A stretch of DNA of 63,688 nt, filler included, from Eremomyces bilateralis CBS 781.70 (GCA_010015585.1; 5 parts of 5 records of this genome joined end to end with filler, not necessarily neighbours in it); one strand, 5' to 3'. Positions 18,289-39,490 are shown, counted from the whole stretch's first letter. Numbers and translations are program-made. The notes: generated by a model from the sequence alone, not told the origin.

Positions 18289-20994
18289 TTAGTTTAAAAG
18301 AAGGTAAGGGCGGGTTCGATACCGTGTTAAGAGAGTAGAGAGTTGTCCGTCTAAGAAATTCGACCCTACGTAGTTCTTCTGTAGGTCCCGGTAGAACTTG
18401 GCCGTTTTAAGCTCGCAGAGGCCGCCAACGGAGAGAACGAGGGGGAAGAAGTCCTTACCGTGAGCCCGATACTTTGCAATCTTGGCCTTGGCTGCCTCGT
18501 CGAGGACCTGAAGGGGCGGCCTAGCTTTGACGGAGCTCGCGTGGACTGAGACGACGGTGAGGTCGTAGAAGGTCTCTCCAGGGGGGCCCAGGACCGAGAT
18601 GTCAGCGCGGTGGCCAGTGGGGTCACGTGAGTCAAAGGGAGGCTCCTCCTTGATAGTCCTCGAGGGGTAAGCCACGCGCATGGCGCGCGCTAAGACTCCT
18701 CGGATCGTATCATGGCGGGTGGCGGTCCCTCGTTGCCTTGTTCGGCATGACTCCGCGTGGAAGGGTGTGTTTTCTATTCCGCAAGGGCAAATGGGCTCTT
18801 GGTCGCCTCCGAGGAGCATTCGAAGTTTCAGGGCCGTAGCTAGCTCTCCGTCCGCAAGAAGAAGTGGTTTTTATGAAGGCAGGACGTTAAGCCAGTGGCG
18901 ACCGAAAAACGACGCGTTTTCCGTCAGGGTAGCGACCCTCGTGGGGTCCTTTTGGTCGCTAAGGGTCTTTTGGACCCGTTCTAGCCGTTGACGGGCCAGA
19001 GATTGCCCGATTTCCCTCTGGGGGGGCGTGGGGGGCCTTGGGGGGTCTGGAGGGAGGTCTGGGGGCGGAGGAGTTCCAACAAAGACGTAGGCGACTGGGA
19101 GGGGCTGAACTGGGTCGTCTGGGTCAATCAAGGGATCCCGGAGGGGCGTAGGCCAGCCAAGGGCGGTCCGGAGGGACTGGGAGGCGAGCTTTGAGGCCGA
19201 TCGGTAAGCTGGGATGCTTAGTTCCTCGTAGAGGGGGAGACCGAGGCCTCCGAGCTTCACCGGCAAGGCGATTAGGTCTCGATCGAGCGGGTAGGACGTC
19301 GGGTCGCCTCGAATCAGGCCAATGGCGCGCTGGATTTCGTCGTCTGCAGTCTGCCAGGTTTCTCCGAGGCCGAATGGGTGTAGAGTTCTTAGGAGGTGGC
19401 GGAGGGTTAGCGACACGCACGTGCGTAGGAGGAGGAGGGCTCCTTGTTTCGGGAGGGCGAGGATCCGGGAGACGGCGGTCTTGAATTCGACGATTTTCGC
19501 TTCTAGGAACTGTTTCCTAGCGTCGTCCGGTCCGATGAAGCTTCCGAGTGCCCGAATTCCCTCATTTCGGACGAAAGTAGTCGAATATTCGCTACTTTTC
19601 GTCTCGTTTAAGATCAGGGGCGCTCGGAGGTTCCGAAGGGTGTCCCGAACGATTCCCCGGGCTCCTTCGTTTGGCGAGAAAAGGTAGATATCGTCGAGAT
19701 AGGCGATCATCTTGACTCGTGGGCCGAGGACTTCGTGGAGGGCGCTGAGGGTATCCCGAATTGCGATCGAGAAGAAGAAGGGGCCGAGGGGATCTCCTTG
19801 GCGGACTCCTTGGGCGGACGTGAGGAGGGGGCCGCCTGTCGTGGCCAGAATGGAGGGTTCTCCGTAGGCCCATTGGGCTAGGCGGTAGAAGTCTGGGGCG
19901 TACTTGTAGATTCCCTTAGCCATGGCGGTCCTATCGACGGTATTGAAGGCGTTTGAGAAGTCCAACGACGTAATTCTGGAGAATTGGGCCTTCTGGTCGC
20001 CGAAAACGGTCCGTTCAATGGCACGCAGGGCTGGTTCCACTCCTCCAGGGGATCCTACGCCAAGCTGGTATGGGAGAAGGGAGCTTGGCGAGTAGTTTTC
20101 CCGCAGGATCGCCTTGGCTACGACTCGGTAGAGGAGATCTCCGACGGCGATTGGTCGAAGGCCTCCGTCTTCCTTTGTCAAGGCCACCAGGCGGGCGGCG
20201 AGGAGGAGGTCTCGTCCGTGGGCGGTCCCTTGGACGATCTGCTTACCGAGGAGTTCGAGAAACGAGGCAAATTGAGGCTCCTTTGTTGCGATTTCCGTCA
20301 GAGCCTTGGTCCATCCGCTCAGTCCTGCCGAGGTTTCCGTGGGAAGGGAGCGTATTGCGGCCCAGATGGTGTCCTTGGATGGGGCACGTCCGGAGCGGGG
20401 CTTGAGGGAGCCTCCAAAGGGGCGGGGCGGGCCAGGGGGGTGTTTTTTCCGCAAGATTTCCAGGTTTTCCGCTGTTAGCGGGGCGGGGCGGGCGTCCGAG
20501 ATCAGAGTCCGAACGGCTCGGGAGAGGTAGCCACGTTTAAGGAGCTTTTGGGCCTTCTCGAGGGTCTTTGGCTGTAGTTCTGATATGTCCTGGGGGATAG
20601 GCGGCGAAGGGGAACGAGGAGGCGTTAGAGGTTCCATGATCGGGGGCGGAAGAGGGGCAGGAGGCCGAATGTTTGGGTATTTCCGGAGGGTTTCCGCGAT
20701 TGGTTGTCCGAGGCCACCTTCTCGAGCTAGCGCGAGGACTTTTGGGAGCAGGAGGATGTCGAGGAGGGACGCGGCGGTTGGGCGGGCCAGGTATACTGCG
20801 GAACAGCGGGCTGCGGCGGTTGCGAAGGCTTTGGCGTATCTTCCGTGCAGAGGGTCTTCGGTTGGGGCGACATGGGCGTAGCTGAGGAGCACTTCGAGCT
20901 CTGGGGAGATTTCCGGGACCGGAGGGGATTCCGTTGGCTGGCTGGGGTTATCCGGGCCTGTAGGAGGCGGCGGAGGGGCGGGGCGGAGATTTTT
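18289..20994 (-). mobile_element. RLE-type non-LTR retrotransposon (CRE/Cnl1/MoTeR-like), one premature stop, 5' end in a gap
   Basis: RT motifs GLRPIAVG, LDFSNAFN, GVRQGDPLGP, AYLDD and LGGLG. These are followed in the same frame by CPCG...HAESC, RHD, RADI, YDLTV and KIAKY (restriction-like endonuclease). ORFs 18871-20892 and 18289-18819 share a frame and are separated by a single TAA. Confidence 0.88.
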
Positions 20995-21411
20995 NNNNNN
21001 NNNNNNNNNNNNNNNNNNNNNNNNNNNNNNNNNNNNNNTTAATTAATTAANNNNNNNNNNNNNNNNNNNNNNNNNNNNNNNNNNNNNNNNNNNNTAGGCC
21101 TCGGATGGGTGCGGGTGGGTTGGGTTGGGGTTCTCTTGGCGTGCGGGTGGGGTGGGGTGGGGTTCTCCAAACCTGGATTCCCAACCCAACCCCACCCGCA
21201 TGCCAAGCAACCCAAACCCAACCCCACCCGCAGGCAACCAGGGACAAACCCAACCCCACCCCATGCCAAGAAACCTTGGGGGAACCGCGGGGTGGGGTTT
21301 TCTGCGGGTTCAACCCCAACCGCAAGATGGGTTGGGTTTCTTGGCGCATCTGATGGGTTTCTTGGCATTATTAAAAGGGCTTTAGACTAGATTAGGCTAG
21401 TAGCATATAGA

Positions 21412-21469
21412 GAGAGAGATTCATACGCCCGTCAGGCCTCTCTGCGAGGCCCATGTGGGGAACTAGCTA
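21412..21469 (-). mobile_element. 5'-truncated SINE/LINE-tail insertion, family D, with (TC)n tail
   Basis: 16-bp TSD GCTAGTAGCATATAGA at 21396-21411 and 21470-21485. Confidence 0.85.
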
Positions 21470-21804
21470 GCTAGTAGCATATAGAAGATGTGGTAGTCAG
21501 ATGTGGTAGTCAGATATGGTAGTTTAGTCACGCGGTATAAAATGTAAGTAGGAAGCTTTCTATTTAATTCTGGCTATAGAAGTTTATCCGGCGCATTAAG
21601 CAGGATCATTAATCTAAGAGTATACGATGCTCACTCACCCATCGTATACCCAAACCTGCGACTTGTTATTCGCCTTAACTGACAAATTGGAGAATTATAA
21701 AAACGCCATCCATTGACACCCATAACTCATGATATACGTTAAGCCATAACTAAAATATATTAGTTTATATAATCATGGTAGGATTCAGACCTTACCTTCA
21801 CGTT

Positions 21805-22346
21805 TTACTTTCGAGCGTGCTTCCTAACCGAAATGAAAGACCCGTCGCACAACCTTTCCACCAGCTCGATATCCTTCGCCTGGAGAGTTACGCGCTTGGC
21901 ATGGATGGCACAGAGGTTGGAATCTACGGTGTGTTAGTTATGTGGTAGTCAGGAGGAAGTAAATAAAAACATACTCTCAAAAAGCTTTACAAGGTATGCT
22001 TCTGATGCTTCTTGGAGCGCCTCGAGCGCAGACCTCTGGAAACGATACCCTCCATCGTAATTGAAGTCACCTGAGATCTCGCGCACAAGTCGAGCAAATG
22101 GCAATTTCGGAATCAGCAGTTCGGTTGATTTTGCCAACTGCTTGATCTCTCGAAGCACAGACACTTAGAGGTTTAGCTACTACTACACCGACTACTACAC
22201 AGAAACTTACTGCCAGGACGTTTGAAGTATGCGCCAGTCTTCGTCTTCCTTACAGGCTTTCTCGAATTCGTAGACCGTTTCCTGGCTGGGGGGCGCTTTC
22301 TGCCAGGAGTGTGCTTTCCGCCGGGGGGGCGGTTTTGAGATGGCAT
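21805..22346 (-). CDS. Divergent histone H3-like protein (147 aa, 3 exons: 22346-22211, 22163-21975, 21923-21805)
   Basis: Spliced product: [147 protein letters not shown]. Clear H3 histone fold with GT-AG introns of 47 and 51 nt. Confidence 0.92.
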
Positions 22347-23117
22347 GGTTATTCGTCGAATCGTTGGTAGAGTTATGACCGTATTGTTTGTTAGGTTTCG
22401 GTTGTAGAGAAGGCTAGGTATGGAGGAGAAAAAGGAAGGTAAAGAGAGAGGACTAGGTTGTTGGTTAGTCGACGTTGTTATGAGTAAAGGTAAGGTTTCT
22501 CACCAGGTTATCACTTCTGAAAATAATTCCAAGTCCTTTTTACCAATAACTCTGGCAAATCTTGATCGTTTTCGACCAAACGAAGTAATCTCAGCGTGGT
22601 AGTACTTGTGGTGGTCACCAAGAGCAATTTCCTCAAGATGGGAGATCTCCTAGGATATATAAAAATTAGTAAGAAGTGAAAATTAATGTCGAAAGTGACA
22701 TTCAAGTGGCTAACCGTCCTGCGAGCTTAATTCTACAAGATTTAAGCTTACTACTGCATTCGAAGTGCGGTAGTATTCGTGGTAGTCGAGTTATGTTATA
22801 AAAGGAAGAAAAACGGGTGAGTTAACGAAAATATCGAGATTTCTAAGTGTTTTGAATTTCTTCGTATTTCACTTCACTTATGAAAACCTAACCAAAATAA
22901 ACTATCCCCCAAACAAAACCTTTACCAAAACAAAACTTTCCTCTTAATGAAACTTTCTTCCCCTTACCCTAACGCCTCCCAATCTTGATTATTTTCCATG
23001 CTAGTTACAAGATTGTAAGAGTTATTAATATTTCAAAAGTGAGAATCTCAATAACTAACTTTCTGCTAGCTTCACCTATCCCATGATCCAGTGACCGGCA
23101 GTCTTAACGAGACGACA

Positions 23118-24547
23118 ATGACGGCTAAGCGGAAGGCGGTGGCCGATCTCTCTACCAATGCGAATACAGCTCGCGAGCGAAAGCGTCGGGATGCCCGGGA
23201 TGCAAGTCGCGTCGAATATGAGAACCGCAAAAAGGCTGATCAGACTGCGGTATCGCGCGCACGGGCAGCTATAGCGCTGTTACCAAATTTCAGGTCGAGT
23301 GGGACCGACAAGCGACAAGAGCTACTTCGTGTAGCGGTCGAACAAGTGACCAACGAAAGGTCAGTTATGTGTACCAGTCAATGTGGTAACTAGTATTTTT
23401 ACTAACTAATCTAGGATTAATCGTGGAGTCCATCACTCGCTCCATCCCCTTGCGGCGGTCCCTGCGACGACTAGGACTGCGCAGGACCCAAAGTTATTTC
23501 TCAATAAGCTCTATCCCGATGCCGATAACGATAGCGATTGGGAAGATCTCCATGAAGATATGGAAACTTCGGTCGATCAGGATTTCGAAATCCTAAACAG
23601 TATGCCCCTCCCGCCAACATTTAATTCGACGGATTTCAGGTTCTGGGCGGAATACAAGCGAACTGTTGCCAAATATGATTTCTATAATCGGATCGAATTG
23701 GGAGAATGGCGTCGCTTTACCAAACGATGGCAACGAGCACGAAAGGCGGTTCTATATAAGAGCCGAGCTATCAACCGAGCGAGAACTTTAGACGGTCGGC
23801 TTAGCCTTGGAAAGCTATGGCTTCTGGTAGACACCGTGGAGATTTTGGTAAGTGTGGTAGTTTATGTGGTAGTCCTATACTAACCGCATTTAGCGATCGA
23901 GTGCCGAACTGCAAAGGCTGATCCGAGCAGATTGGCAATCTTTCGGCTTAAACGCCGAAGACCAAGATTGCGCAGAACTTGAGTGGATAGTTCGTAATGC
24001 CCCGGCGTTGGACGACTGGCTGTCATCTCCGGCGTTCTACTCGAAGGGTCATTTAGATCTTCACCTCGTATGGCCGAAGCTCCCCTTCGCGATTCGATAT
24101 TTTCTCGTAAGTTTAATGCGGTAGTCAGCGTGGTAGTCTCTTTTCGGCTTATTTGACATTTTAAATCAGAACCAGAGCGCCACTTTCTCAACGGCGCCTT
24201 TTGCGCACCAAATTTTCAAGGATCGACACGAGAGAGGCATTTTAATTGGGTTCCTCGCTTGGGCTGGTCGATACCAATATGAATTCCCCTTCCCGGCTTG
24301 CTTGTGGGATGCGCCTGATAACGATGAAAGATGGGGACTTTCTAAGATTAGCGACTCGAAGACGGCTGCCATGATGTATGATGGTTTTAAACTCGTCTTT
24401 AAACCGCCTGGGAACTGCGAAGCCCCCCCTGACGCCTACCGCATCGACTGTCCAATTGATAGAGATGCGATGATCGGAGATGGATACTTGCTATCGCTCC
24501 GCCCTAACGGTGAGCGAGGGAACGCTATTTGGAAAAGGAGGATGTGA
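23118..24547 (+). CDS. Orphan hAT cargo protein ORF2 (~421 aa, 4 exons: 23118-23359, 23415-23847, 23894-24106, 24170-24547)
   Basis: Three GT-AG introns join the ORF-track pieces 23091, 23560 and 24302, plus an intervening exon, into one stop-free frame. Basic helical N-terminus. No recognised domain. Confidence 0.75.
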
Positions 24548-24836
24548 CAAGGCATCTAGCTATTCGATTGATAGGCTGGAACATTGACTACCACACCGAC
24601 TAGTACGCCCTTCGCAGACATAGTTCTGCAGCATATGAATAACGGATTCGGGCAGAATATGGGGGGCTGGTGGACCAGGAATTAATATACATTCTGCTTC
24701 AACCCATTTCCTGTGATGAATTGATAATATTCTATTAAGTACTTCAATCACGATAATACATTACTGCCATACTGACTACCACACTGACTACCACTTTTTA
24801 TCATTACTTAAACCTGTCTTTTACTCTATTTCTAAG

Positions 24837-27738
24837 ATGGCCTCTTTATACACTGATTCAGAGCCGACTGAGCCCCAGTCAAGCTTTACCGAAGCAAGGT
24901 CTGCGATCGAATCGTCCGACGGAATCGGTGTCGATGGTCTCCGGCAGTATACGATCAAAAACACGACATATTATGTTGTTGACCGAGATAACCCCGCGCC
25001 GTTTGACGATTGGTGGAAGAGAACCCAATTCTGCCTTAGGAACAAGGCTAGAGACCCTGACAAGCGGTTTAAGCCAACGTGGGATAGAAAAGTGGTTCGT
25101 TCTGATTACTGGTCCTACTTCGAAGAAATCGCCGAGTCTGCTACAGGGGTTGTTAAGATCCATTGTATCCGCTGTGGTTTTGTTGGGGGCCACCCAGCTG
25201 TAATCACTGAGAGGCTAGACGGCAGTCTCGGATCACGTACTGGCAATTCGACAATGAAGGCGCACCTTCGGTCAGGAAATTGTATGCAGAAAGCTGATAA
25301 CAAGGGCCTAACCCAGTTGACATTTCACGATATTACCGATCCAAGGCGCAAGGTAAGAGACTACTATATGAACTAGTATATACACTTTCCCTAATAGAGT
25401 TTAGGCTAGAGTTGATAGGACCCGAGCTGCCCAATTCCTTGAGGGACAACGGGTTACCTCGAAGCATTTCTTGGATTGTCTGGCTCGAATGATTGTTTCT
25501 CGGGGTATCCCTATGAACTTCTTCGAGGATCCTGAAGTCCAGCGGTCCTATCTCTGCCTAACGACTACTGAACCACCATTTAGTAACCCAAAGAGTCTGC
25601 GGAATCGGATCTTCACTCTCTATGAATCCGCGACGAAGGCAACTCGGGATGATCTTGCCCACCCTGATAGCATCAAACAGAAAATTGGTCTCGCGGTCGA
25701 TGGCTGGTCCGCAAAGTCTGGCCGTACAGGCTATCTTGGAATTCTCGCCTATTGGACCTCGACGGACATGAAATGGCATGAGGCGCTTTTAGCGTTCACG
25801 CCAACTGAGGCTAGGCATTCCGGTCGGGACCTAGCGGAGATGATCATGCAGACACTACTCAAGTTTCGAATTACTGACCGTCTACGCTCAATCACTGCAG
25901 ACAATGCTTCGTCAAATGGCACGATGGTCGCGTCTATCAACGACGAGTTGAAATTTCTGTTGTCGTCACATGGAAGCTTAGACCCGGTCGTATCAATCCC
26001 TTGTATCTCCCATGTTATTCAGCTGGTCCAGGGAGAACTCCTCAAAGGCCTCAAGTGCGTGGCGGAGAATTCGGAGATTATCCGAAACTGGGATGAAAAG
26101 GAGTTTGTGAGGGAGCAGCGCGCAATTGCGTCGTATGGGGCGGTGCCAATTACACTTTGGAAGGTGAGTCTCTACTCCTTGTAAAATGTGGTAGTCAATG
26201 TGGTAGTCATTACTAATATAGTCTAGGCTCGACAGACCGCTAAACACATTGTGGCATCGGAGAAACGACTGAGAGATTTTCTTAAGATCCAGCAGGAGCT
26301 TATCGACCAGGAACACCCGACCCTGGACAAACAGGAGCTCTTCTGGGTTAGCCTGCTCCGGCAACCCCTGCGTCCACTACAAGACGTCAAAACACGATGG
26401 GACTCGACTACGCAGATGCTTGTTCGACTCCGCATTCTTCGCCAACCCCTTGACCGTTACTGGCGTCAGGTTTCGAAGCAGTCGATGGCCCTCGATCCTC
26501 AACAATGGGATATCATCGAATACCTTATTGATATGACCGCTCCACTAAATGCATTTACGCAGTCAATTGGCAGATCGTCGTCCCCATCAATCCACAGAGT
26601 CTACACGATCTACGATACTACATTCGGCCATCTTGAATCTACGATCGATAGACTTAAGAAGAAGCATGCTTCGTGGAAGATTAGCCTCAAGGAGAGCTTG
26701 GTGAATGCCGTAGAGAAGTTGAAGAAGTACTATAGCAGGACTAGTGTTTTTACAGCTCTTGATGAAGCATACGCGTTCTCTTTCCTACTCAGTCCTAGGA
26801 CACGAAATACTGCTTTCACTTCATCGGCTTGGAAAGGGAGGGCTAATAACCGGGGACAAAATTACCGAACAGTCTACATGGGGAGACTGCGGGATCATTG
26901 GGAGGAACACTACAAGGTTGACAACCCAACCCAATCAGAAGAGGGAGCAGCTTATACACGCGGAATTGACTATGTGCGTCAACGGTTGCATCAAGATGTT
27001 CAGCCCACCGAGGGTTCAAACTCTCGATCAATGGACGAGCTAGCAAGATATTTTGACTCTTGTAAGTACATATTCCCCTTTATTCATACTCCGATCTCTT
27101 ACTAATCTTTTAATATAGGCTCGTCAAACAATATTGAACCTCTCGAAGCTTGGCGCGAGAATGGAAACTACATAGCCTACCCAACAGTTGCTCGGATGGC
27201 TCGCGACTACCTTTGTTCTCCGGCAGCATCCGTTGGCGTCGAGCGCCTATTTTTCCTTGCTCGCTGTCAGTCAGAGTTCAATCGGGAGTATAAGAGTGAA
27301 ACACTCGAGGCGATCATGGTGGCCAAGGCGAGGTTGAAGCTTGACTTTCAGATAGAATCCGAGCGTCTCCAAGAGCTGGAGGAAGAGCTAGGTGATATCG
27401 GTGATGCTGATACGTCTACGCTAGACACACTGGTTATAGAATCGGACACTCGTAAGAGGCATACTAATAGTATCCTGCGCGCGACGGGTGAAGGGGAAAT
27501 TCATTTGATCAGCGACGGTGAAGATAGTGAGGATGATGTTGAGGATGACGGGAGGGATAGCGATCCTAATACTGGGGAAGATAGGAGGGACGCTGATCAG
27601 AGCGATGGTCTAGGGGAACCAGACGAGACACTAGATGAGTTAGGTGAAGATTACGATACAGCTGGAGTAGCAAAGAGGACACGAAGTAGTACTATGGCAA
27701 GTGAACCTCAAGACCGTTCGAAGCGGAATAGGTTATAG
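24837..27738 (+). CDS. hAT transposase (~909 aa, exons 24837-25352, 25405-26163, 26227-27061, 27119-27738)
   Basis: BED-like finger (CIRC...HLRSGNC), motifs AVDGWS, ITADNASSN, CISH and TRWDST, and dimerisation domain SVGVERLF. All introns are GT-AG and in frame, with no stops. Confidence 0.93.
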
Positions 27739-28153
27739 ATAGGTTTTCTTCTATTAGAGTACTTTTGAATGAAATTAATTTCTTTCCCTTGACTACCACA
27801 CTTGACTACCACATATGACTACTATATTTAATCCCCTATTCTATCCTACAACCGGATCGTACCTCTAGTTATGCCAAGAAACCCAACCCATCTTGCGGTT
27901 GGGGCTAAACCCGCAGAAAACCCCACCCCGCGGTTCCCCAAGGTTTCTTGGCATGGGGTGGGGTTGGGGCGGGGTTTCTTGGCGTGCGGGTGGGGTTGGG
28001 GTGGGGTTTTGAAATATTGGCTTCCCACCCCAACCCCACCCGCAAACCGGCGGGTGGGGTTGGGTTTGGGTTTGCCAAGAACCCGCACCCAACCCGTTTT
28101 TTGCGGGTTGAACCCGCACCCATCCGAGGCCTAAGATTAACCTTGATCCTGAA

Positions 28154-28307
28154 GAGCCGGATCCTACGAAAACAGGCTGTTCCTGCAGCTATTTTATATG
28201 GTTTAAAATGGTGATCTTTTCCCTAAGAAGGGGAAGAATAGGGGTATAGAATCGAATACGGAATGAAGCCGTGGGGAAACGCCAAGAAACACAGATATTC
28301 TGTGACA
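28154..28307. repeat. LTR-like fragment family E, ending TGTGACA
   Basis: Diverged copy of 55140-55298. It abuts the hAT right end. Confidence 0.75.
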
Positions 28308-28327
28308 AGATAGAAAATGCAGATGGT

Positions 28328-28435
28328 GGCACAAGGCCACAAGGTACCAATGTATGTAATTAGTCAGCTTAGGTAGTTCCCCACATGGGCCTCGCCGAGA
28401 GGCCTGACGGGCGTATGAATCTCTCTGTCTCTCTC
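28328..28435 (+). repeat. SINE-like family D copy
   Basis: ...GGGCCTCGCCGAGAGGCCTGACGGGCGTATGAATCTCTCT, shared with the other D copies. Confidence 0.85.
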
Positions 28436-28451
28436 GTGGCCTTGTATAGTA

Positions 28452-29408
28452 TTAATATACACAGTACGTACTTTTGCATAAAGCACATGCCGCAGCATTA
28501 CACTCCGGACAATGAAAAGTAAATTTAGTGGGAGTCTCTCCACAAAAGATGCAGCTTGCTTCTCCTTTCTTTTTGGGCCAGCCTAGCTGGGGATGAATGC
28601 AATCCCTCGTAGGATGCTGAGTCGCGGGTTGCCCTGGCTTGGCTTGTCGACGCTCCGCGGCTTCTCGTATGCTTGCCCAATTCTGTCGAATTGCGTCCTG
28701 CTTCTCCTCTATCAATATGGACTTAAGCCGCTCCTTCGCAGCCATCTCTCGCTCTTGTCTTGCTCTCTTCGCAGACTCTTCAGACTTTCGTTCCGCCTCC
28801 ATTTCTTTCTGTTTGTGCAACCGTTCTATCGCCGCATGTTCTTGTTCTTCCCTAGCCTTTCGTGCCACCTCCCGTGACCGATATTCCGCCATTCTTTCTC
28901 TCAATTCCCTGTCTCGCGCCAGTCGCTCTTCCTCAGCTCTCCTGCGTGACGCCCTTTCCTCTGCTGCTTTTGCATCCTGCTCTGCTTGTTCCCTAGCGGC
29001 TCGTTGTTCCTCTGCCATCCTACGTGCCCGCTCGGCTTCTCGTCTGAGCTCTTTATTTCGGCGCTGTGTCTCTTGCCATATGCGATATTGGACCCATTCT
29101 CCTCGTAATTGTGGGTAATATGCGTCATATTCCGAGCGCTTTGAAGCATCACGGAGACATTCATAGGCCTCCCTAATCTGACCTGGCGCTTTAGCTTCTC
29201 TCTGCTGTTTAGAATTCTTAGTACTTACCCTGCGAAAATCGTGAGCATCAGTGATCTTCCCTGGAGCTTGTTTGTCTGGATGATGCTTTTTTGCCAGTAA
29301 ATGGTGTGCCCTTTTTATGTCCTGGAACGTTGCTGTTTGCTGTAGACCAAGGGCTAAGTAATAGTCTGACATTTGTGGACGCTCTAGCTCTGGTATAGTC
29401 TCATCCAT
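28452..29408 (-). CDS. DnaJ-domain protein with coiled coil and C-terminal Cys-rich region
   Basis: DYYLALGL...HHPDKQ J-domain. Probable in-frame 51-nt intron after DFRR. C-terminal CxxC pairs. Confidence 0.85.
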   Translation of the reverse strand: MDETIPELERPQMSDYYLALGLQQTATFQDIKRAHHLLAKKHHPDKQAPGKITDAHDFRRVSTKNSKQQREAKAPGQIREAYECLRDASKRSEYDAYYPQLRGEWVQYRIWQETQRRNKELRREAERARRMAEEQRAAREQAEQDAKAAEERASRRRAEEERLARDRELRERMAEYRSREVARKAREEQEHAAIERLHKQKEMEAERKSEESAKRARQEREMAAKERLKSILIEEKQDAIRQNWASIREAAERRQAKPGQPATQHPTRDCIHPQLGWPKKKGEASCIFCGETPTKFTFHCPECNAAACALCKSTYCVY

Positions 29409-29683
29409 ATTTTACAACAAATGCGCATGGCATACCCTAGCAATAACTTTAATCACTGCAACGGTCAAACTTGTGTAGTAGTTAAAACAAGCGTCTATGG
29501 CGGTTCGCGCTTGTTCAGAGTTGATCTGAACCTATTTCTACCGTAAGCAATATCTACTCTACTATGTTTTCTTTTCTGGCTTCTATCCAATCACACACAC
29601 CATATACGTGTATTATCATGATTGGCCGCTGAAGACGCATTCCAGCTTTTCCACAAGCCACTACATATGTATCACCATAGCCC

Positions 29684-29916
29684 TGACACGGTCTGGATGC
29701 GCAAGGTCTGCGATTACCAAGTTCCATTAATCTAAACTGAAGAGAGAGAGAGAGAGAGAGAAGAAATCTCCCGGCACCTTTGTGCGCGAGATAGCGACTC
29801 TCCTCTCCAATGCCCTACTGCTGTGTTACCATGTTTGTTTGCTTCTCTGATATAATCCACCAGCCACGTCTTCAGCCACAACCAAGGGAACAGGCCGCAG
29901 GCCTGGGACCATAACA
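29684..29916 (-). repeat. Solo LTR family B (no matching TSD)
   Basis: Reverse complement of family B. Flanks AGCCC and CTAAA differ. Confidence 0.9.
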
Positions 29917-30269
29917 CTAAAGAACGACTCGTCGAAGAAGATCAGAGTAAACGTAATCACTACGGAGACAATAGATATAGAAGAGTTATGGGACGAGACA
30001 CTTGCCAAGGATGATCAGTACTAGGTTCTCCTTTAGGCCACGAATGAAAAGGCTAGGCGGGTACTATTATAGTACAAGCACTTAAAGCTATCAATTGTCA
30101 TGGGCTGTAAGGACATAAGCCTCCTGTAGTCATGTGACAGGGTCACATGACTAGAACATAGAGAATTAGTATATATGGTTTCCAACCCCAATGACCCCTG
30201 TTTGGGATCATTGTGATCTTTTATGGTCCAATGGTATTAGCGCGGAGGGTTGGTCACGTGTCATTACAG

Positions 30270-30870
30270 TAGAGGAGGACCGTTAAAAAGAGAATTCCTA
30301 TGTAAATGGGAAGGCTATGCGGAACCGACGTAGGAAGCTGCGTAGTATATCGAGGATACAGTAGCGCTAGATGATTACGAACAGAAGACAGGGTGCGATA
30401 TCTTCAATCCTCTTAACCTAGATAATCCCCATTTCTTGCGGAGGAGGGGGCATTGTTATGGTCCCAAGCCTGGGACCTTGGTTGTGGCTAAAGACGTGGC
30501 TGGTGGATTATATCAGAGAAGCAAACAAACATGGTAACAGCAGTATGTGACAGTCTTGGGCTTCGCCCAGTCTGTGTGTTGTGGCCTTGCGGCCTAAGGC
30601 AGAAGGGATGGGTAGACTGTTTGCCCACAGATGTAAATAGCAGATCGCAGTAAGAGAGATCTTCTCCTTCTCTCTTTAGCAATTCAACAGCGTTACCAGC
30701 TTACCAAATCCTTCGTGGTTTGGGCCCATGACACAGTAGGGCATTGGAGAGGAGAGTCGCTATCTCGCGCACAAAGGTGCCGGGAGATTCCTTCTCTCTC
30801 TCTCTCTCTCTCTTCAGTTTAGATTAATGGAACTTGGTAATCGCAGACATTGCGCATCCAGACCGTGTCA
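30270..30870 (+). mobile_element. 3' end of a chromoviral Ty3/gypsy element: chromodomain relic, PPT and 3' LTR family B (30454-30870) with nested LTR A
   Basis: Chromodomain with stops, REFLCKWEGYAEPT*E...ALDDYE. The PPT GGAGGAGGGGG lies just before TGTTATGG. Confidence 0.85.
30546..30733 (+). repeat. Solo LTR family A (188 bp) nested in LTR B
   Basis: TG...CA ends and TSD CAGTA at 30541-45 and 30734-38. Confidence 0.95.
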
Positions 30871-31102
30871 TAGATAGATCAATCAATCACGTATCAATAC
30901 TTCTGCATGAGGCACTGTAGATATAGCGCCGCAGCCTTGCGAACCGACTTAACGTTTCGCCATGCCTCCGACCATAGACAACTCTCCGAAAACACCTGGA
31001 GAATTGGCCACTGATAGGGCATGGTCATAACAGGTCTCCCTAGTGGCAGTGACTTGCCGCTTTCACTAAAGTTGAACTACCAAAACATCGACGAGCGCGA
31101 AG

Positions 31103-31965
31103 ATGGACGGCGAGAACGGGTACGATAGACACCACAGCGAGATCGACGTCGATGGGTTCAATGAGGGTGGACCTGCGAAAACTCCGCTGGCTACGAGCCG
31201 TGCTCAAAGCCCGTATACCCAACACCCTGACATCGATTTCAACGGCTTGAGCTGGCCCAGTAAGTAGCACGCCGGCACGGAGGCAAGATGGCTTACGAGT
31301 ATAAGGCAAGGGCGCCCGTGAGAGGAAGGAAGCTACCGAGCAGGAGAAGGAAGAGCGGCTGTCAAATCTATCCGGTGCCGTAAGGAAAATACTGGACTGC
31401 ATTGGCGAAGATCCCGACCGTGAAGGCCTACGGAATACACCGGATCGCTATGCAAAAGCGCTCCTCTTCTTTACGAAAGGCTACGAAGAAAACTTGCGCG
31501 AAATTGTGAACGGCGCCGTATTCCACGAAGACCACGACGAGCTCGTAATCGTAAAGGATATCGAACTCTTCTCCCTGTGCGAGCATCACCTCGTGCCCTT
31601 CACCGGAAAAGTATGCAAAAAATCACCCCGGTATTTGCGCACTTCATCTAACTCTCAAATAGATGCATATTGGCTATATCCCCAACCGCCGAGTGATCGG
31701 GCTCTCTAAGCTCGCCAGAATCGCCGAGATGTTCTCCCGCCGGCTCCAGGTGCAGGAACGGCTCACGAAACAGGTAGCTCTCGCCCTTTCCGAGGTTCTC
31801 TATCCGCAAGGCATTGCTGTCGTCATGGAGTCTAGCCATCTTTGTATGGTGACGCGTGGCATCCAGAAGACAGGGGCAACCACGACAACCAGCTGCATGC
31901 TCGGCTGCATGCGGTCGATGGCCAAAACCCGAGAAGAATTCTTGAATCTTATCAATCGGAAATAG
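31103..31965 (+). CDS. FOL2: GTP cyclohydrolase I (3 exons: 31103-31259, 31306-31610, 31663-31965)
   Basis: Motifs [55 protein letters not shown] and HLCM. The start codon is uncertain, and this may be a paralogue rather than the housekeeping copy. Confidence 0.92.
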
Positions 31966-33217
31966 AGCGTGTCATTTGTAGTATCATGCAATGGTCTGTC
32001 AGCGTAGTTATTGCTATGAATGGCGTTCGCGCCGGTGTTAATCTACTTAGGTAAGGCCCTTTAAGTCCTGAGAGTGATATACATCCTATTAATATTAGTG
32101 GCAATGGTACTGTCCCACTCTTCAGGCTCTCGATAACATCTACATTCGAACGTTCTGCTTCGCTCCGCCGCTCATCTGTGTGAACTCTTAGCTCAGGTAT
32201 CAGGAAGAGTCAAGCTTCATGCCTCGTTCGACGTATCGTATCTATTTATAAGCGCTGCCCATGCCGCAGGGTGTTCCTGGGGAATGTCAAACATATCCGT
32301 AAGTAGAGCCAGGTTATCATGTATTGGCATGCGGGGTCATACTATCAAGCCTGATTTGTGTCGCCATGCGATTGGACGCGAAATATGCACCCCTCCTTAG
32401 GTCATCTATGTATCATCATCCCATTCCTGACCGGAATTCCACTGCTGGTTTGCACTCTGCGATGACGACGATGAAAGATCGCCGCCAGAAAAGATTTGGT
32501 GTCAACATAGCAATCAACCATCGATTGCTTCTGCTTTTCCGATCAGTTGATTCCCTAGGTACCCAAAGTAGCGTCAGCGGTGAGAGTAGCACTCTTGGAT
32601 GGGGGTTTGGATGTGCGCGATTGGGAAGGCGAAGGTGTGCATTTTCCTTGTAGGACTGAAATCAGGTTGACAAGGTGCTGGAGGTGGGACATTCGACCTT
32701 ATTCGCGCATCACCACGCACAATGCATCAAAAATTACAAGGTCAAATGTGTCGGTCGCTCTTTATGGACGAGGGTCCGTTATGGTGTATCTCGTCAGGAG
32801 ATGCACTCTTTCGGAATTATGTGCCGTAAGGAACAAAGCCTCTTTCGTCGAGGATAGGAAAGACCGATGCCGATACGGTGTACGAGGTCATGTTTCACGC
32901 AGATGTTACTGGGAAAAGATGCTGATGCATAGTAGAATGACGGCTGCTACAATTATCCTGTTGCTTTACTCTGCACGGAAGAATCTGACTGGGCTTCGAC
33001 TGACTACTCACAGATTTATAATGGACGTATGTCTGCTTCAGATCGACATCCGACGAATAGAGCACTAGGATCATAGTATCTGCAATCAGGTATAGTGCCG
33101 CAGGTTTCGCCTCTCGATGTAAACCGCTTCAATACGGCCGTTGACCTCAATAAGGCCCATATCAACCATTGTCGCCATTCCTAATGCGAAATACTCGCAC
33201 ACTCATGCCGAACGGAA

Positions 33218-36200
33218 ATGGCCACCCTTGACTCCCTAAAGCGGGCCCTTCGGCGAAAAACCAGAGCAACGGCATCGTCCTCGAAGCAGCCCTTGTCCGA
33301 CTCACAGTACAGCGCCGGCTTCGATATCTTGCTCCGAGACTCGGGATGGGTGACATACCGGGATTTTATCATCCCTCAACTATCTCAGCTGCTAAGCCTT
33401 CTCGTTAACTCGCGTGTCCATATCTCGGCACTAGAAATCGGACCGGGCCCGAAGAGCCTCCTTGGACATCTTCCCAGCGGTCTAAAACGGAAGGTCAGGA
33501 GATACACTGCATTCGAGCCCAATGGCTTGTTTGCTACGAGGTTGGAAGAATGGCTTAGCTCGGCCCCCGAGTCAGAGTCCCCGCTGCCCTGTCTGGAAAG
33601 GGCGCCCGACATCCACCGAATTCCCTTCGTCCTGGACGACAACATAGGTAGCGTTACCGGTACCGGTACGAGTGATGAGGAAAAATACGATATCATCCTA
33701 TTCTGCCACAGCATGTATGGCATGAAGCCCAAACACAGGGTGATCGAACGTGCGCTAGAAATGCTTGTTAAGCGGCCACAAGGCGGAGTGGTCGCGATTT
33801 TCCATCGCGACGGGGCCCTGGACCTCGACGGCTTGGTGTGCTATCGAACGGCTTCTTTCCCTACCGGAGTCGTTCGCGTGGCAAATGACGACGAGGTACT
33901 AGATAGTTTTGCTCCTTTCGTCGCGGGGTTTGTCGTGCAGGACGTGGACGTGGACAAGGCTATCCGAGTTGAGTGGCGTAAGGTGTGCCGCGCCTTGAGC
34001 CGTCGCGAGGATGCCTATCCAGATCATCTCTTGTTCAGCGCGCCCAACGTCATGGCGGCCTTTACCCAACATGCGACCACGTTGCCAGAGCTGACGGCGC
34101 AGGTGCCATTGGTGAAAGAGGGCAAGATAGTTAAAAACCGGGAGGCTCGCCTTCACCGCCCCGCCTCGATTATTAGGCCGACAGAGGTCCGACACGTCCA
34201 GCAGTGCGTTCAATGGGCTCTTAAGCACGGGGTCGGCCTGACCGTCGTCGGTGGGGGTCACAGCGGCCATTGTCTCTGGCCCAACGTTGTTTCGGTCGAC
34301 ATGGGCGCCTTTGATCAAGTACACATTGTCTCAGCGGGGGAGGATGGAGGGGATTCTGGTTCCGATTCTGGTTCCTTGGTCGTCGCCGAGGCCGGCTGCA
34401 AGACGGTGGATATCGTCCGCAAGGCCATGGCGGCGGGTGTGACAGTGCCCCTAGGGGCTCGCCCAAGTGTCGGTGCGGGGCTGTGGCTACAAGGCGGCAT
34501 CGGGCACCTGGCTAGGTTGTATGGGCTCGCGTGCGACGCCATTGTAGGTGCCATTATGGTTAGCGTCGACTCTAGCCAGGTCCTCTGCGTCGGCCATGTA
34601 CCAAGCCAACACCGGCCGGCCGGTGCCGTTCGCCCAGATAACGAACCCGATCTATTATGGGCGATGAAAGGCGCCGGGACCAACTTTGGCATCGTGGTCA
34701 GTGTGATTTTCAAGGCTTACACAGCTCCGACCTACCTGACTCGAAACTGGGTTGTCCCGCTAAGTGACAACCTCGAGGCCCGGTTCAGACTCAGTGACTT
34801 TGATAAACTCGTCGCCAGGAAGCTCCCCCGGAGCTGTTCTGCAGACGCGTATCTGTACTGGGACGCTGGCCAGCTGCGTCTTGGCATGACCATGTTCGAA
34901 TCTTTCACGACAAGGCTCACCTCTGCAAAACCCACGCTCACGCCTGTAGGTGAAATTTGGGGGCCGGGAGACGATTCCAAGGCCGTAGACGGCATCGGTT
35001 TGTTTGAGGGCGAGATGTACATGTCCGGGATGCACGGCGGGCACGGCAGCGGCAAGACCTCCTCGTTCAAGAGATGTTTATTTTTAAAAAACATCGGAGA
35101 AGCGAACGTCGCCGACCGATTGGTGGCGGCCGTTGGGACTCGTCCCTCGCCACTCTGCTATCTCCATCTCTTGCAAGGTGGCGGAGCGGTCGGCGACGTT
35201 GCGGCCGATGCCACTGCTTTCGGCTGTCGGGACTGGGACTTTGCCTGCGTGATAACTGGTGTCTGGCCCTGCGACCAAGATGGTACCGAAGCCGCACTAT
35301 CTGCCGTGCGGTGGGTTTACAACGTCGCCGGGGACTTGTTGTCCCTGAGTAGCGGAGCTTACGGCGCCGACCTTGGGCCGGACCCCAGAGACGCCGTGCT
35401 GGCGGCCAAGGCTTTTGGACCGAACCGGCCGCGCCTGGCCCGTCTCAAACACAGCTTGGACCCGCGTAATGTACTGGCTTATGCCTGCCCACTCCCGAAA
35501 GTGCAGATGCAACAGAAGCTTATCATTCTTGTCACGGGCGAAAGCTGCGCCGGCAAGGACTATTGTGCCGACGTCTGGGTCTCCGTGTTCATGAAAAGCG
35601 CTCACAAAAGCCTCACGGCGCGTGCGGTCAGCATTAGCGATGCGATCAAGCGAGAATACGCGGCGGCTACCGGTGCCGACTTGAGCCTCCTGCTTGGGAA
35701 CCGTGCCTACAAGGAGCAGCACCGCCCGGCGCTCACGACATATTTCCGAGAACGGGCGCGGCAACGTCCTCGGCTGCCACAGGAACATTTTCTGAGCGTC
35801 GTGTCTGGCGCCGTCGACGTGGACGTGCTGCTAATCACCGGGATGAGGGACGAGGCGCCGGTCGCAACCTTGTCGCATTTGGTGCCAGACAGCAGGCTTA
35901 TCGAGGTTCACGTCCAAGCGAGTGAACAGACGCGGCGGGTTCGCCGAGGGTGCCACATCGGTGACAACGGTGGTGATGACTACGGTGACGACAACAAGGA
36001 CAACAACAGTCGCAAGTCGAGTTCAACAGCTTGGGATTACTGTCATAGTTTCACCATCGACAACGACACGACCGGGAATAAGGCGGCAACACGGTTTGCC
36101 GAACGATACCTGCTTCCCTTCCTCCACGAGGACCTGCAGCGACTGGCCGACATGGTGCGCCAGATACCCGACTACCCGCGCCAAGGCATCGAGTTCTGTC

Positions 36201-36736
36201 ACGTGCTCGGCATCGAGTTCTGTCACGTGCTCGGCATCTCCCAGAAGCCCGGTGGGCTGGCCCTGTGTACGTCGCTGCTGAAAACCCACTTCGCCGGTGA
36301 CTGGGCCAAAGTCGATGCGGTGGTGTGTTGCGAGGCCGGCGGGTTTGTCTATGCGTCGGCGTTGGCCTCGTGGGTCAATGTGCCATTGGTGCTGACTCGG
36401 GGCGCTGGCAAGCTCCCTCCACCCACCGTGTCGGTTATCAAGCTCTCATCGCATATCTCTTCTTTAGAATCCAACGATTCGACGGAGAAGCGGATCGAAA
36501 TGGAACGGGATGTCCTACCCAGGGGGGGTTTCGTGGTAGTGGTAGACGATGTACTCTCCACCGGGAAGACGCTCTGTGCGGTGTTACAGCTTCTGGATAA
36601 AGATGGAATCGGCTCCGATGATGTCAGCATAATGACCGTGGCCGAGTTTCCGGTTCACCGTGGCCGGGAACTATTGCGCCGGCGTGGGTTTGGCAGAATC
36701 AATATTCAAAGCCTTTTAGTCTTTGGCGGTGCTTAG
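33218..36736 (+). CDS. Multidomain enzyme, 1172 aa: SAM methyltransferase-like + FAD-linked (BBE/VAO-type) oxidase + phosphomevalonate/NMP-kinase-like P-loop + type I phosphoribosyltransferase
   Basis: LEIGPGP/FCHSMY (methyltransferase), GGGHSG and GAGTNFGIV...LKHSLDPRNVL (FAD oxidase), VTGESCAGKDY...AYKEQHR (kinase) and VVVDDVLSTGKTL (PRPP-binding loop). Intronless. Confidence 0.88.
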   Translation: MATLDSLKRALRRKTRATASSSKQPLSDSQYSAGFDILLRDSGWVTYRDFIIPQLSQLLSLLVNSRVHISALEIGPGPKSLLGHLPSGLKRKVRRYTAFEPNGLFATRLEEWLSSAPESESPLPCLERAPDIHRIPFVLDDNIGSVTGTGTSDEEKYDIILFCHSMYGMKPKHRVIERALEMLVKRPQGGVVAIFHRDGALDLDGLVCYRTASFPTGVVRVANDDEVLDSFAPFVAGFVVQDVDVDKAIRVEWRKVCRALSRREDAYPDHLLFSAPNVMAAFTQHATTLPELTAQVPLVKEGKIVKNREARLHRPASIIRPTEVRHVQQCVQWALKHGVGLTVVGGGHSGHCLWPNVVSVDMGAFDQVHIVSAGEDGGDSGSDSGSLVVAEAGCKTVDIVRKAMAAGVTVPLGARPSVGAGLWLQGGIGHLARLYGLACDAIVGAIMVSVDSSQVLCVGHVPSQHRPAGAVRPDNEPDLLWAMKGAGTNFGIVVSVIFKAYTAPTYLTRNWVVPLSDNLEARFRLSDFDKLVARKLPRSCSADAYLYWDAGQLRLGMTMFESFTTRLTSAKPTLTPVGEIWGPGDDSKAVDGIGLFEGEMYMSGMHGGHGSGKTSSFKRCLFLKNIGEANVADRLVAAVGTRPSPLCYLHLLQGGGAVGDVAADATAFGCRDWDFACVITGVWPCDQDGTEAALSAVRWVYNVAGDLLSLSSGAYGADLGPDPRDAVLAAKAFGPNRPRLARLKHSLDPRNVLAYACPLPKVQMQQKLIILVTGESCAGKDYCADVWVSVFMKSAHKSLTARAVSISDAIKREYAAATGADLSLLLGNRAYKEQHRPALTTYFRERARQRPRLPQEHFLSVVSGAVDVDVLLITGMRDEAPVATLSHLVPDSRLIEVHVQASEQTRRVRRGCHIGDNGGDDYGDDNKDNNSRKSSSTAWDYCHSFTIDNDTTGNKAATRFAERYLLPFLHEDLQRLADMVRQIPDYPRQGIEFCHVLGIEFCHVLGISQKPGGLALCTSLLKTHFAGDWAKVDAVVCCEAGGFVYASALASWVNVPLVLTRGAGKLPPPTVSVIKLSSHISSLESNDSTEKRIEMERDVLPRGGFVVVVDDVLSTGKTLCAVLQLLDKDGIGSDDVSIMTVAEFPVHRGRELLRRRGFGRINIQSLLVFGGA

Positions 36737-36756
36737 CAAAGGACGGAAAAGATCTT

Positions 36757-36860
36757 AGAGAGAGAGAGAGAGAGATTCATACGCCCGTCAGGCCTCTCTG
36801 TGAGGCCCATGTGGGGAACTAGCTAGGATGACTAATTACATGATGGTTGCCTTGTGTCTA
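36757..36860 (-). repeat. SINE-like family D copy
   Basis: (GA)n followed by TTCATACGCCCGTCAGGCCTC... Confidence 0.85.
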
Positions 36861-39067
36861 GTGCCTGGAGGAACGAAGTGCCTGGAGGAACGAAGTGCCG
36901 TAAGGTCTGAGTGCCTGGAGGAACGAAGTTCCGTAAGGTCTTTGTGGACGCCTGAGGGCCAACTTTTCTCCCAACTCAAACTTAAATCACATGATATTCA
37001 CGTGAGTTTCACGTGATTTCCGTTCCTTCACCCCAACCTTCGTCGACATCGCGATCGCCGCCCGATTTAGCCCGTATGATATGATTCTAACGAGCTATGA
37101 AACTACACGCTCGGCATCGTTCACTCGCCGTTCGCTGACACCGCCTGATTCTGACCCCGCGCCTGACTGAGTCCGATCGTCGGGACTCAATCCGATCGTT
37201 GAGACTTGACTCTGATTGTCAAGACTGACTCCGATCATAAAGACTCGAGAAAAAGAGGAGGGATGCGAGGGAAAAAAAAGAGGCGAAGTCTCCCCATCAT
37301 TAAGCGATCAATGTTACAAAGGGTCGGTTTTCAATGTCTCTCGCTCTATTTGCGCTCTGCTAGCCAATCTACTTTGTATATCTAGGCCGCGTTTACTTCC
37401 CCTTAATGTACCGTCCATCCCTCTTCTGTTGACCAGTCCCAACGTTCCGCGTCTTGAATCATCCCCTCGCTCAGCCGTTCTAGCCTATTCTCGGCGGCGA
37501 CCATAGTCTCGGGCACTCGATTACCGATAATGTCCCTTTCTCGCGCTCGAGACAGAAGCATAATCCCATCTAGGGATGGGCAGCGCGATAGTTGTACGTA
37601 TAGGCCGTAGGCATCGCATTAACTGGGAACGGCCTAGCCATCGATGTTCGTCGTCCTCGCGCCGCGAAGTTCTAGCGCCACTCGGTCTAACGTCTTTCCT
37701 TACACCTTATAATCCGTGGAGGCGAACGCCGCTGCGCACGGTAATCCTCGCCGGCTGACGTCGTGCATCTGCCACGGCCGCTTTCTCTGGGAGTCGATTT
37801 TGACACTGACGGGTGCCAGGAGGATGGTGCCGGCTGGCATGCCCACGAAATCGTAGTCTCTCGTCGTCTCGGACGCCAGCACGATCCCGGCCGGAGGCCC
37901 GAAGTGGAGCATGGTATCGGCGTTGACGCGATGCCCGGGGAATTTCAGGTCGAGGATGACGTCTAACGCCGTATAGCGGGCGCCATTGACCAGCTTCAGG
38001 CCTTGGTGGGTGTTTTGATTTACGGTGATGGGCATCCCCTGGACGAACATAAAGATAGCGGGGACGGGGATGGCGCTGTCGTCCCCCTGACTTAACAGCA
38101 TTAGGGCCTCCTCCTCCGTAGGCTGGCCATCTTTCCACTTGTGCTCGGACATGAAAATCCGAAGCACGCTTTGCCTTTGGCGTTGGAAGGACAGCGTGGC
38201 TTCGACGTTCAGATTCCAGCGGTTCCGATTCAGCGGCGTGATAACCGTGATGCCGGACTCCCATGGGATACGTCGACCTTCCTGGTAGCACGTGTCGTTC
38301 AGAAAATCCATATCGGACTGATCTTGTACGCCGTGCCGGATCCGCCTGAGGAGTTGCTGGAGTCGTGGATCTCCGGCGGCACGGACTTGTTCGTCGAGCA
38401 TCACGACCGTAGTAAACTTGTTCCACAGCGCGTGCGCTTTATCGTGCTGGTGCCTCTGCTCTGCTCGGAAAGCTGTATCGTCGGTCTACGCAATAACTTG
38501 GCTGGGGAGAAGGATGGACCGCTCCTGGACCGGGCGGAACTGGCGGAAATCCCCGCAGAACACGATAATCGGGATCCCGCTAAAGTCGTCCGCATACCCT
38601 CGAAGTCGGTACAGCTGTTCGTTTACTATATATAGCGTCCGCGCACCCAGTATACTGACCTCGTCGATAATGAGCAGGAGCTTTTCCTGCCATACGGCCC
38701 GGCTTCGTCCATCGACGCGGAGATTAGTTGAACTCCTAGGCGCGAATCTCTCCAGGTCCGTACTCCGACCCACCGACCGAGTCGTGTCTTTCGAGAACCC
38801 GCACGCGGAATGGATAGTGACCCCATCAATATTGGCTACCGCCGTTCCCGAGGTCGCTGTAACCAGTAGGCGGTGCGGGATCCCCTTCCTCGCGAACAGC
38901 GCCGCGACCGCTCCGATGATCCGTGATTTTCCCGTCCCGCCCTCACCTCCAATAAATTGGCAGAGCTGGGGAACTCCGGACTCGTCGCGGTGGACCCGGT
39001 CTAGCTGGCGGCAGATAAGTCGAAATACGATACTCTGCTTTCGATTCAAGGTAAACGACTCCTCTGC
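36861..39067 (-). mobile_element. Helitron-like element 3' part: degraded PIF1 helicase and terminal repeats
   Basis: Walker A GEGGTGKS, IIDEVS, GDFRQFRPV, LDEQVRA..D, LVNGA and ASTDYKV, broken by stops. GCCTGGAGGAACGAAG occurs three times at 36863-36928. Confidence 0.85.
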
Positions 39068-39390: not shown

Positions 39391-39490
39391 NNNNNNNNNN
39401 NNNNNNNNNNNNNNNNNNNNNNNNNNNNNNNNNNTTAATTAATTAANNNNNNNNNNNNNNNNNNNNNNNNNNNNNNNNNNNNNNNNNNNN

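Follow-up and report, generated by a model that had tools for sequence, protein, structure and literature searches.

Why should a transposon carry a gene for a histone, and what does the gene beside it do? Both questions are raised by a hAT-type DNA transposon of Eremomyces bilateralis CBS 781.70, found in a window of 63,688 nt (the whole stretch of DNA that was analysed, made up of several contigs joined end to end). The element carries an H3-like gene (H3L, minus strand), a central open reading frame (ORF2, plus strand) that lies head to head with H3L, and, downstream of ORF2, a hAT transposase gene (plus strand). An initial annotation had described ORF2 as a hidden orphan gene that might read a motif or partner a histone. 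Reports of transposons that bring along a histone H3 gene date from 2013 (PMC3538342) and 2019 (PMC6710886); full-text literature searches retrieved only these two reports on such elements, and nothing on the central ORF after its mention in 2013. We find that ORF2 is a selected accessory gene of an H3L-carrying DNA-transposon lineage. New for ORF2 are a verified gene model, evidence of expression, a protein family with three conserved parts, purifying selection, and a linkage to H3L that holds across ~34% protein identity; ORF2 is now also tied to an exact 8-base word, GTGGTAGT, that is kept in introns.

The four-exon, stop-free model proposed for ORF2 is correct. Its exons (Table 1) join to give 1266 nt, or 421 codons followed by one final stop, and each of the three introns begins with GT and ends with AG, with TACTAAC present inside introns 1 and 2. 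A protein search with exon 2, followed by a script comparison, matched the spliced product letter for letter to a 421 aa entry (P0001), the 'hypothetical protein P152DRAFT_463103' of Eremomyces bilateralis CBS 781.70. The gene is therefore already annotated, and was hidden only from a stop-to-stop (bacterial-style) ORF list, which splits it. It sits on an 18,296-nt contig (window positions 21095-39390), and no second copy was found within the window.

Transcription was assessed from public sequencing runs, six of which were listed; of the words in the stretch searched, 21400-28200, half or more occur in three of them. One run, X3, is RNA by the guess of the search tool ('RNA?'), none of the listed runs being recorded as such. 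An X3 contig of 2,555 nt spans positions 21441 to about 24475 in ten spliced pieces that total 2,556 nt, and one piece (23413-23846) equals ORF2 exon 2 within an alignment ambiguity of 1-2 nt. Support for removal of the ORF2 introns comes from this piece and from depth arithmetic, the joints of the ORF2 introns themselves lying beyond those listed. If the introns were retained, X3 depth would be 113.8 in the six bins across 22750-24404, where 94.9, 98.0 and 92.1 were seen; with the introns removed, the expected depths are 98.0 for the bin of intron 2 and 92.1 for that of intron 3, and exactly these values were observed. Agreement between the spliced model and the printed depth is within 0.6 in eight of nine bins. 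The ninth (23081-23411), which holds intron 1, lies 7.3 above the model, possibly reflecting partial retention of this intron, in which the motif copies are degenerate. The arithmetic also leaves 55 nt missing from bin 22750-23080, and an inferred intron in the 5' untranslated region (UTR) accounts for them; it was the sole candidate with a standard plus-strand 5' site and a branch point among the 53-57-nt GT..AG or CT..AC stretches in 22715-23080. The same contig omits both H3L introns (21924-21974 and 22164-22210) and UTR introns at 21750-21795, 22453-22503 and 22649-22713, and splicing at 26162-26224 and 27062-27118 is seen in a transposase RNA contig (record 18). DNA contigs of run X1 are unspliced across 21441-24960. 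Coverage is absent from X3 contigs at 24476-24547 and in the ORF2 3' UTR, and from X4 contigs at 23743-24404, gaps from which no conclusion is drawn. The putative RNA contig is consistent with the proposed splicing, and ORF2 is a spliced, transcribed gene.

Relatives were sought with phmmer among 1.84 billion representative proteins (E ≤ 0.001). Seventeen were found, each of about exon size (80–237 aa): eleven cover exon 1 only, two cover exons 1 and 2, three cover exon 2, one covers exon 4 and none exon 3, which places exon 1 in 13/17 and exon 2 in 5/17. The eleven exon 1 proteins end at or just past the exon boundary, five of them exactly there, and six continue into apparent intron sequence. 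One such tail reads '...RLVFVVVFVVV...' (P0003) and another NYH (P0015); judged from the peptide, the first would encode GTGGTAGT twice, that is, a motif-bearing intron. The exon 4 relative (P0002) shares 41% identity with ORF2 residues 305-420 (E 1.9e-19). Residues K4, R5, S12, N14 and T17 of exon 1 are invariant in 14 sequences, and exon 2 positions D39 and W42 in seven. The acidic segment picked out by the initial annotation, which contains Trp, is among the conserved parts of the family, both in the alignment of seven sequences and in the metagenome loci described below. The term orphan was only partly apt: relatives exist, and none belongs to a known family.

A metagenome scan with an exon-2 pair confirmed 2 of 397 pattern matches, the loci L001 (2,287 bp) and L002 (6,209 bp); with an exon-1 pair none of 595 matches was confirmed. 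No ORF2 homologue was present on prokaryote genome contigs (0/280), and none of 121 viral loci with the motif pair encodes a relative of ORF2 or H3L. Both metagenome loci specify a three-exon ORF2 homologue, with 34% identity to ORF2 in exon 1 (E 1e-9) and 43% in the acidic segment (E 2e-5), and their last exon aligns with ORF2 exon 4 in hhalign (probability 67.7%, E 4.9e-5, 80 columns). Introns 1 and 2 occupy identical alignment positions in all three genes. In both loci found, an H3-like gene (PF00125, E 9.7e-17) is again the head-to-head neighbour of the homologue, and the L002 H3L is 58% identical to that of the window, the IPK..FAR changes being common to both. Over 340 ORF2 codons, L001 and L002 differ by dS 0.57 and dN 0.061, giving dN/dS 0.106 (Fisher p 2e-32), and the ORF2 protein is therefore under purifying selection in their lineage.

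The expectation that homologues always lie in hAT elements with H3-like genes thus held for the histone gene and failed for the transposase, since no hAT transposase was found in L002. What L002 has instead is an ORF (226-1836) that matches the integrase core rva_4 (PF24764, E 3.5e-29). An inverted repeat of 42 nt, perfect and with ATA outside each copy, lies at 106-147 and 6063-6104, and the unit also contains a K/E-rich ORF of 425 aa (4414-5691). Either the transposon that houses the H3L-ORF2 pair here is of a second kind, or a fragment of a hAT element is nested there.

The word GTGGTAGT occurs as 16 exact copies in the window against 1.22 expected, a count reached by 0 of 100 shuffles. The copies are mostly paired, 12-13 nt apart, and those of the element lie in both subterminal regions, in the promoter region shared by H3L and ORF2, and in introns (Table 1). 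L002 carries 13 copies against 0.15 expected and L001 carries seven. The introns of both loci contain GTGGTAGT pairs, and the L002 ORF2 introns consist of little beyond a 5' site, the motif pair, CTAAC and AG. Of ten L002 copies, seven are found intact in L001, against a non-coding identity of 0.65 (binomial p 5e-9), which indicates selection on the word and shows that it accompanies the H3L-ORF2 pair; the same 8-mer is retained in the window, L001 and L002 though the ORF2 proteins are only ~34% identical. The first intron of the transposase gene (25353-25404) contains GACTACTAT. A short form of the comparable Pyrenophora element is described as arising by recombination at 'gactat', which is present in both its central ORF and its transposase ORF (Manning 2013, PMC3538342), and 'gactat' resembles the reverse complement of the window motif (GACTAC...).

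The sequence features reported for the ORF2 protein were all present: a KRK resembling a nuclear localization signal (residues 4-6), a basic N-terminus (19 K+R and an isoelectric point of 10.9 over residues 1-80), an acidic patch (12 D+E and 0 K+R over residues 113-140) and 13 Trp. Eight of the Trp fall in residues 226-421, in keeping with a Trp-rich C-terminal half; that this half is globular is unsupported, confidence over residues 300-410 being low (Table 1), and the exon-4 domain modelled alone was unusable, with a predicted local distance difference test (pLDDT) score of 42. The AlphaFold2 (AF2) model of the whole protein, built on 21 aligned sequences, has a mean pLDDT of 62. Profile and fold searches for homologous families returned none: in sequence and profile searches of the PDB the best match was Atg3 at E 0.087, with no solved relative; Foldseek gave 0 matches to the ORF2 model at E ≤ 0.001; VIA-align reached at best Z 6.1 to generic helical hairpins, with residues 21-102 effectively compared; and the ESM Atlas gave nothing usable (best feature score 0.77, structural TM score at most 0.36, pLDDT of its own model 0.39). 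No Pfam family was found in the 24 ORF2 family members scanned at E ≤ 1. An H4-like origin of ORF2, considered from the head-to-head layout resembling that of H3-H4 genes, was rejected, as no PF00125 or other histone-fold family was found at E ≤ 10 by the same search that detects H3L at 1.2e-16.

What, then, might the protein do? The strongest functional clue is the pairing of ORF2 with H3L, which is steady across ~34% identity, and a chromatin role coupled to H3L is favoured on this account. We propose that the ORF2 product is nuclear and would work as one module with H3L on the chromatin of the element. The basic N-terminal helical domain would provide nuclear import, DNA contact or both; KRK, 12 residues and RERKRR fit the consensus of a two-part nuclear-import signal. 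The basic histone would be held by the acidic Trp segment (D-W-E-D-L...E-D-x-E...D-F-E), which is conserved and probably disordered, and the conserved C-terminal domain would contribute a further role. The parts of this proposal differ in strength. That ORF2 is a genuine functional gene is almost certain, and the linkage suggests that it probably forms a functional module with H3L. Nuclear action of that module on element chromatin, taken as a whole mechanism, is put forward tentatively, at slightly less than evenly balanced, and direct binding of the histone by ORF2 is doubtful.

Several observations weigh against this proposal. Pfam gave 0 families for ORF2 at E ≤ 10, neither Pfam nor the PDB sequence and profile searches showed any resemblance to the histone chaperones ASF1, NAP, Scm3/HJURP or DAXX, and no DNA-binding family (Myb/SANT or similar) was matched by Pfam in ORF2 or the 24 family members; for the histone-chaperone-like acidic segment that the initial annotation had ascribed to ORF2, no counterpart was found by sequence, nor by fold with Foldseek or with VIA-align, the latter effectively over residues 21-102. 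The C-terminal half yielded no usable AF2 model. Exon 3 has no relative among the 17, and L001 and L002 also lack a counterpart of this exon. Because these two loci share 79% DNA identity they represent one lineage, and the linkage to H3L is seen in the window and in one other lineage. Contact of ORF2 with H3L, H4 or DNA rests on inference at each binding step: the acidic W-x-x-L stretch may be a short motif that binds another partner, and the basic N-terminal stretch may be only a nuclear-import signal. The match of ORF2 to the central ORF of the Pyrenophora element is one of position.

The main rival is that ORF2 is a transposition cofactor that reads GTGGTAGT through its basic N-terminus, in the manner of TnpA or the Harbinger Myb-like protein, and aids the finding or pairing of ends or the control of promoters, with H3L as a separate passenger. 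The motif data speak for such a reader: 15 of the 16 window copies lie in the element, never in coding sequence, the 8-mer persists in L001 and L002 despite the divergence of ORF2 and is kept between them well above the surrounding non-coding sequence, and L002 retains both the array and ORF2 where no hAT transposase shows. The invariant S12, N14 and T17 moreover fall in a basic helix-forming stretch. Nevertheless, no DNA-binding family or fold was detected for ORF2, L002 may be a non-autonomous copy served in trans, and the pairing of ORF2 with H3L is left unexplained. There is also an ordinary reader at hand, since hAT subterminal repeats are usually read, as described in PMC10368747, by the BED finger of the transposase itself. 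By eye, transposase exon 1 (24837-25352) shows a C-x2-C...H-x5-C pattern, so that a BED-like zinc finger is possible, and Pfam gave no zf-BED match in the transposase even at E ≤ 10. On balance we regard a motif-reading cofactor as unlikely. More unlikely still is an extension of both ideas, in which H3L, ORF2 and the GTGGTAGT pairs would constitute a portable chromatin module exchangeable between transposon superfamilies: ORF2 would read the pairs and load or anchor there nucleosomes with the H3 variant that the element encodes, creating a private state that counters silencing or marks the element for its transposase. The pairs would be confined to promoters and introns so as to spare coding sequence, and the carriers would be a hAT element in Eremomyces and, in L002, the 42-nt inverted-repeat unit with its rve-type integrase.

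A captured or passenger gene, having no role in the element and persisting through the youth of its copies or through service to the host, is improbable. In Dothideomycetes, hAT elements are documented to transduplicate host genes (PMC3538342, PMC6710886), and the copies in this genome look near-identical with no ORF2 variant listed, so that selection cannot be read within it. However, the dN/dS between diverged element copies is low, both the pairing with H3L and the sites of introns 1 and 2 have persisted at ~34% protein identity, the protein search returned exon-sized fragments and no full-length homologue of host type, and the read-through tails of some relatives suggest, from their peptides, motif-bearing introns. 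The initial annotation had also seen a basic region reminiscent of bZIP proteins, and ORF2 could accordingly be imagined as a bZIP transcription factor with a dimerising zipper. The spacing N14-x2-T17-x3-R21-K22 is, by eye, the same as that of the bZIP signature face, N-x2-AA-x2-S/C-R. This likeness does not extend further: no bZIP family was found by Pfam in ORF2 (E ≤ 10) or among the 24 members, the best of seven heptad registers over residues 21-80 places L, I, V or M at 4/17 a/d positions, and AF2 predicts for residues 15-84 a helix and an antiparallel hairpin, with pLDDT 90-98 for residues 21-90, although a monomer model is compatible with another state. We consider a bZIP factor very improbable. 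Scarcely credible, finally, is a chance open frame or annotation artefact; the lack of a known domain, the low ESM Atlas pLDDT and the poor C-terminal AF2 models would fit one, and it is refuted by the spliced RNA contig, the relatives with conserved exon ends and purifying selection.

The proposal of a nuclear ORF2-H3L module turns the question of why a transposon carries a histone into a testable problem of two proteins and one motif. If the pair does mark the chromatin of the element, it would represent a transposon-encoded counter to host silencing; otherwise ORF2 is still a rare accessory protein of a hAT element.

The neighbours of ORF2 confirm its setting as a real gene within a hAT element with an H3-like gene, since both a PF00125 histone and a transposase with the hAT dimerisation domain (PF05699), for which only one open exon set was found, lie with it inside the inverted repeats (Table 1). 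G-rich inverted arms bound the element; its outermost 22 nt (21095-21116 and 28112-28133) are 100% complementary, and arms at 21249-21345 and 27873-27969 are 84% complementary. A search near the subterminal motif triplets for an 8-bp target-site duplication with a short terminal inverted repeat gave nothing convincing, and the G-rich arms were therefore taken as the element ends. The left end coincides with the start of a contig, directly after an N44-TTAATTAATTAA-N44 linker; pairs of 44 N around TTAATTAATTAA occur at 20995-21094, 39391-39490, 54877-54976 and 62196-62295, and as they are contig linkers, neighbours across them are not neighbours in the genome. At the right end, an X1 contig (record 4, 27210-27968) connects the motif region with the right arm, its depth being that of the element, and X2 and X4 DNA contigs from 28134 onward have other sequence ahead, leaving loose ends at 28134. 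The k-mer depth in X1 is ~880 in the element against 162 in the flanking gene, and in X2 ~1,150-1,290 against 251-280 in the flank, a ratio of about 5 in two DNA runs that is a rough guide and not a copy number. Across the element copies no ORF2 variant was listed, and the copies look near-identical. Rfam gave no family within the element.

Table 1. Coordinates of the ORF2 gene, its host element and the segments of the ORF2 model (nucleotide positions are those of the window).
Feature	Position	Strand	Description
hAT-type element	21095..28133		7,039 bp; bounded by inverted repeats; carries ORF2
GTGGTAGT array	21490..27812		15 copies in element: 6 intronic, 9 other non-coding, 0 coding
H3-like gene (H3L)	21805..22346	-	147 aa; coding segments 22346-22211, 22163-21975, 21923-21805; PF00125 Histone, E 1.2e-16
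ORF2 5'-UTR intron (inferred)	23015..23069	+	55 nt; GTAAGA..AACTAAC..TAG
ORF2 exon 1	23118..23359	+	residues 1-80 + 2 nt; conserved basic N-terminal domain
ORF2 intron 1	23360..23414	+	55 nt; two degenerate GTGGTAGT copies; RNA piece begins at 23413
ORF2 exon 2	23415..23847	+	residues 81-225; linker of low confidence, the conserved acidic Trp segment (113-140) and a basic helical region
ORF2 intron 2	23848..23893	+	46 nt; GTAAGT + GTGGTAGT-TTAT-GTGGTAGT + TACTAAC + AG
ORF2 exon 3	23894..24106	+	residues 226-296; without relative
ORF2 intron 3	24107..24169	+	63 nt; contains GCGGTAGT and GTGGTAGT
ORF2 exon 4	24170..24547	+	residues 297-421 + stop; conserved C-terminal domain
hAT transposase gene	24837..27738	+	909 aa; exons 24837-25352, 25405-26163, 26227-27061, 27119-27738; PF05699, E 1.2e-9
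AF2 model, N-terminal segment	residues 11-90		pLDDT 83-98; helices 15-26, 29-53, 63-84, the last two an antiparallel hairpin
AF2 model, acidic Trp segment	residues 100-133		pLDDT <50 (41-48 for 101-130); unstructured
AF2 model, middle segment	residues 150-240		pLDDT 73-86; helical
AF2 model, C-terminal segment	residues 300-410		pLDDT <50; without usable model

Three further observations concern the surroundings of ORF2. A dispersed repeat of ~61 nt lies in the left subterminal region of the element (21409-21469), flanked by two copies of the 16-nt GCTAGTAGCATATAGA, and recurs at 28370-28430, 36765-36826, 43715-43775, 45963-46007 and 57466-57526; in appearance it is a small secondary insertion. 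Run X4, which consists of DNA and carries the label of another organism, contains pieces of the element within 22355-27785 at ≥99% identity and a depth of ~4-5 (17/21 placed contigs at 99+%). Possible reasons are a contaminant, a mixed sample that includes the same species, or a recent horizontal transfer. The preceding contig closes with a long open frame on the minus strand (18871-21042) that is, by eye, reverse-transcriptase-like and of the non-LTR (long terminal repeat) retroelement type.

The closest system described is the H3L-carrying hAT element of Pyrenophora tritici-repentis, of ~5.6 kb, with a central ORF described as having no known function (Manning 2013, PMC3538342). As described there, it matches the window element in that its inverted repeats enclose three genes, one H3-like, one the central ORF and one for a full hAT transposase that has the dimerisation domain, and both elements are present in several near-identical copies (judged by depth in Eremomyces) with transcribed cargo. 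By its position, ORF2 is the likely Eremomyces counterpart of this central ORF, to which the 2013 report assigns no function, family, motif array or relatives. The histones differ, both in their tails and, by eye, in the helix-1 region (IPKLPFAR in Eremomyces, LRKLPFSR in Pyrenophora). A second histone-H3-carrying hAT family, in Pseudocercospora fijiensis and relatives (Dhillon 2019, PMC6710886), likewise consists of Dothideomycete hAT elements with H3-like sequence. Its copies, at ~9.5 kb, are described as killed through repeat-induced point mutation (RIP), with intron-less H3 fragments and no other domain or ORF reported; the Eremomyces element, in contrast, is intact, with an intron-containing H3L and ORF2. 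Exact GTGGTAGT had 0 matches in the Pseudocercospora consensus file (supplementary file 2 of PMC6710886), a search that misses words across line breaks. The RIP-type variants GTAGTAGT and ACTACTAC were counted there five and seven times, respectively, as raw counts without a chance expectation.

More distant parallels are found among elements that encode a second protein beside the transposase, as the Eremomyces element does with ORF2. The TnpA protein of En/Spm and the Myb-like protein of PIF/Harbinger are accessory proteins of this kind that bind the repeated motifs of their element, and MuDR encodes MURB beside its transposase; to our knowledge, hAT elements normally encode a transposase only. 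ORF2 has no sequence or domain relation to TnpA, the Harbinger Myb-like protein or MURB (no Pfam match). Among chromatin proteins, Scm3/HJURP and DAXX are chaperones specific to H3 variants, and acidic histone-binding segments are known. No family or fold match of ORF2 to either was found; it resembles such chaperones in its conserved, acidic, aromatic and probably disordered segment and in adjoining a divergent H3 with a changed loop-1 region. Unlike TnpA, the Myb-like protein and MURB, moreover, ORF2 is linked to a histone gene and not to a transposase, as L002 carries ORF2 together with H3L and no hAT transposase.

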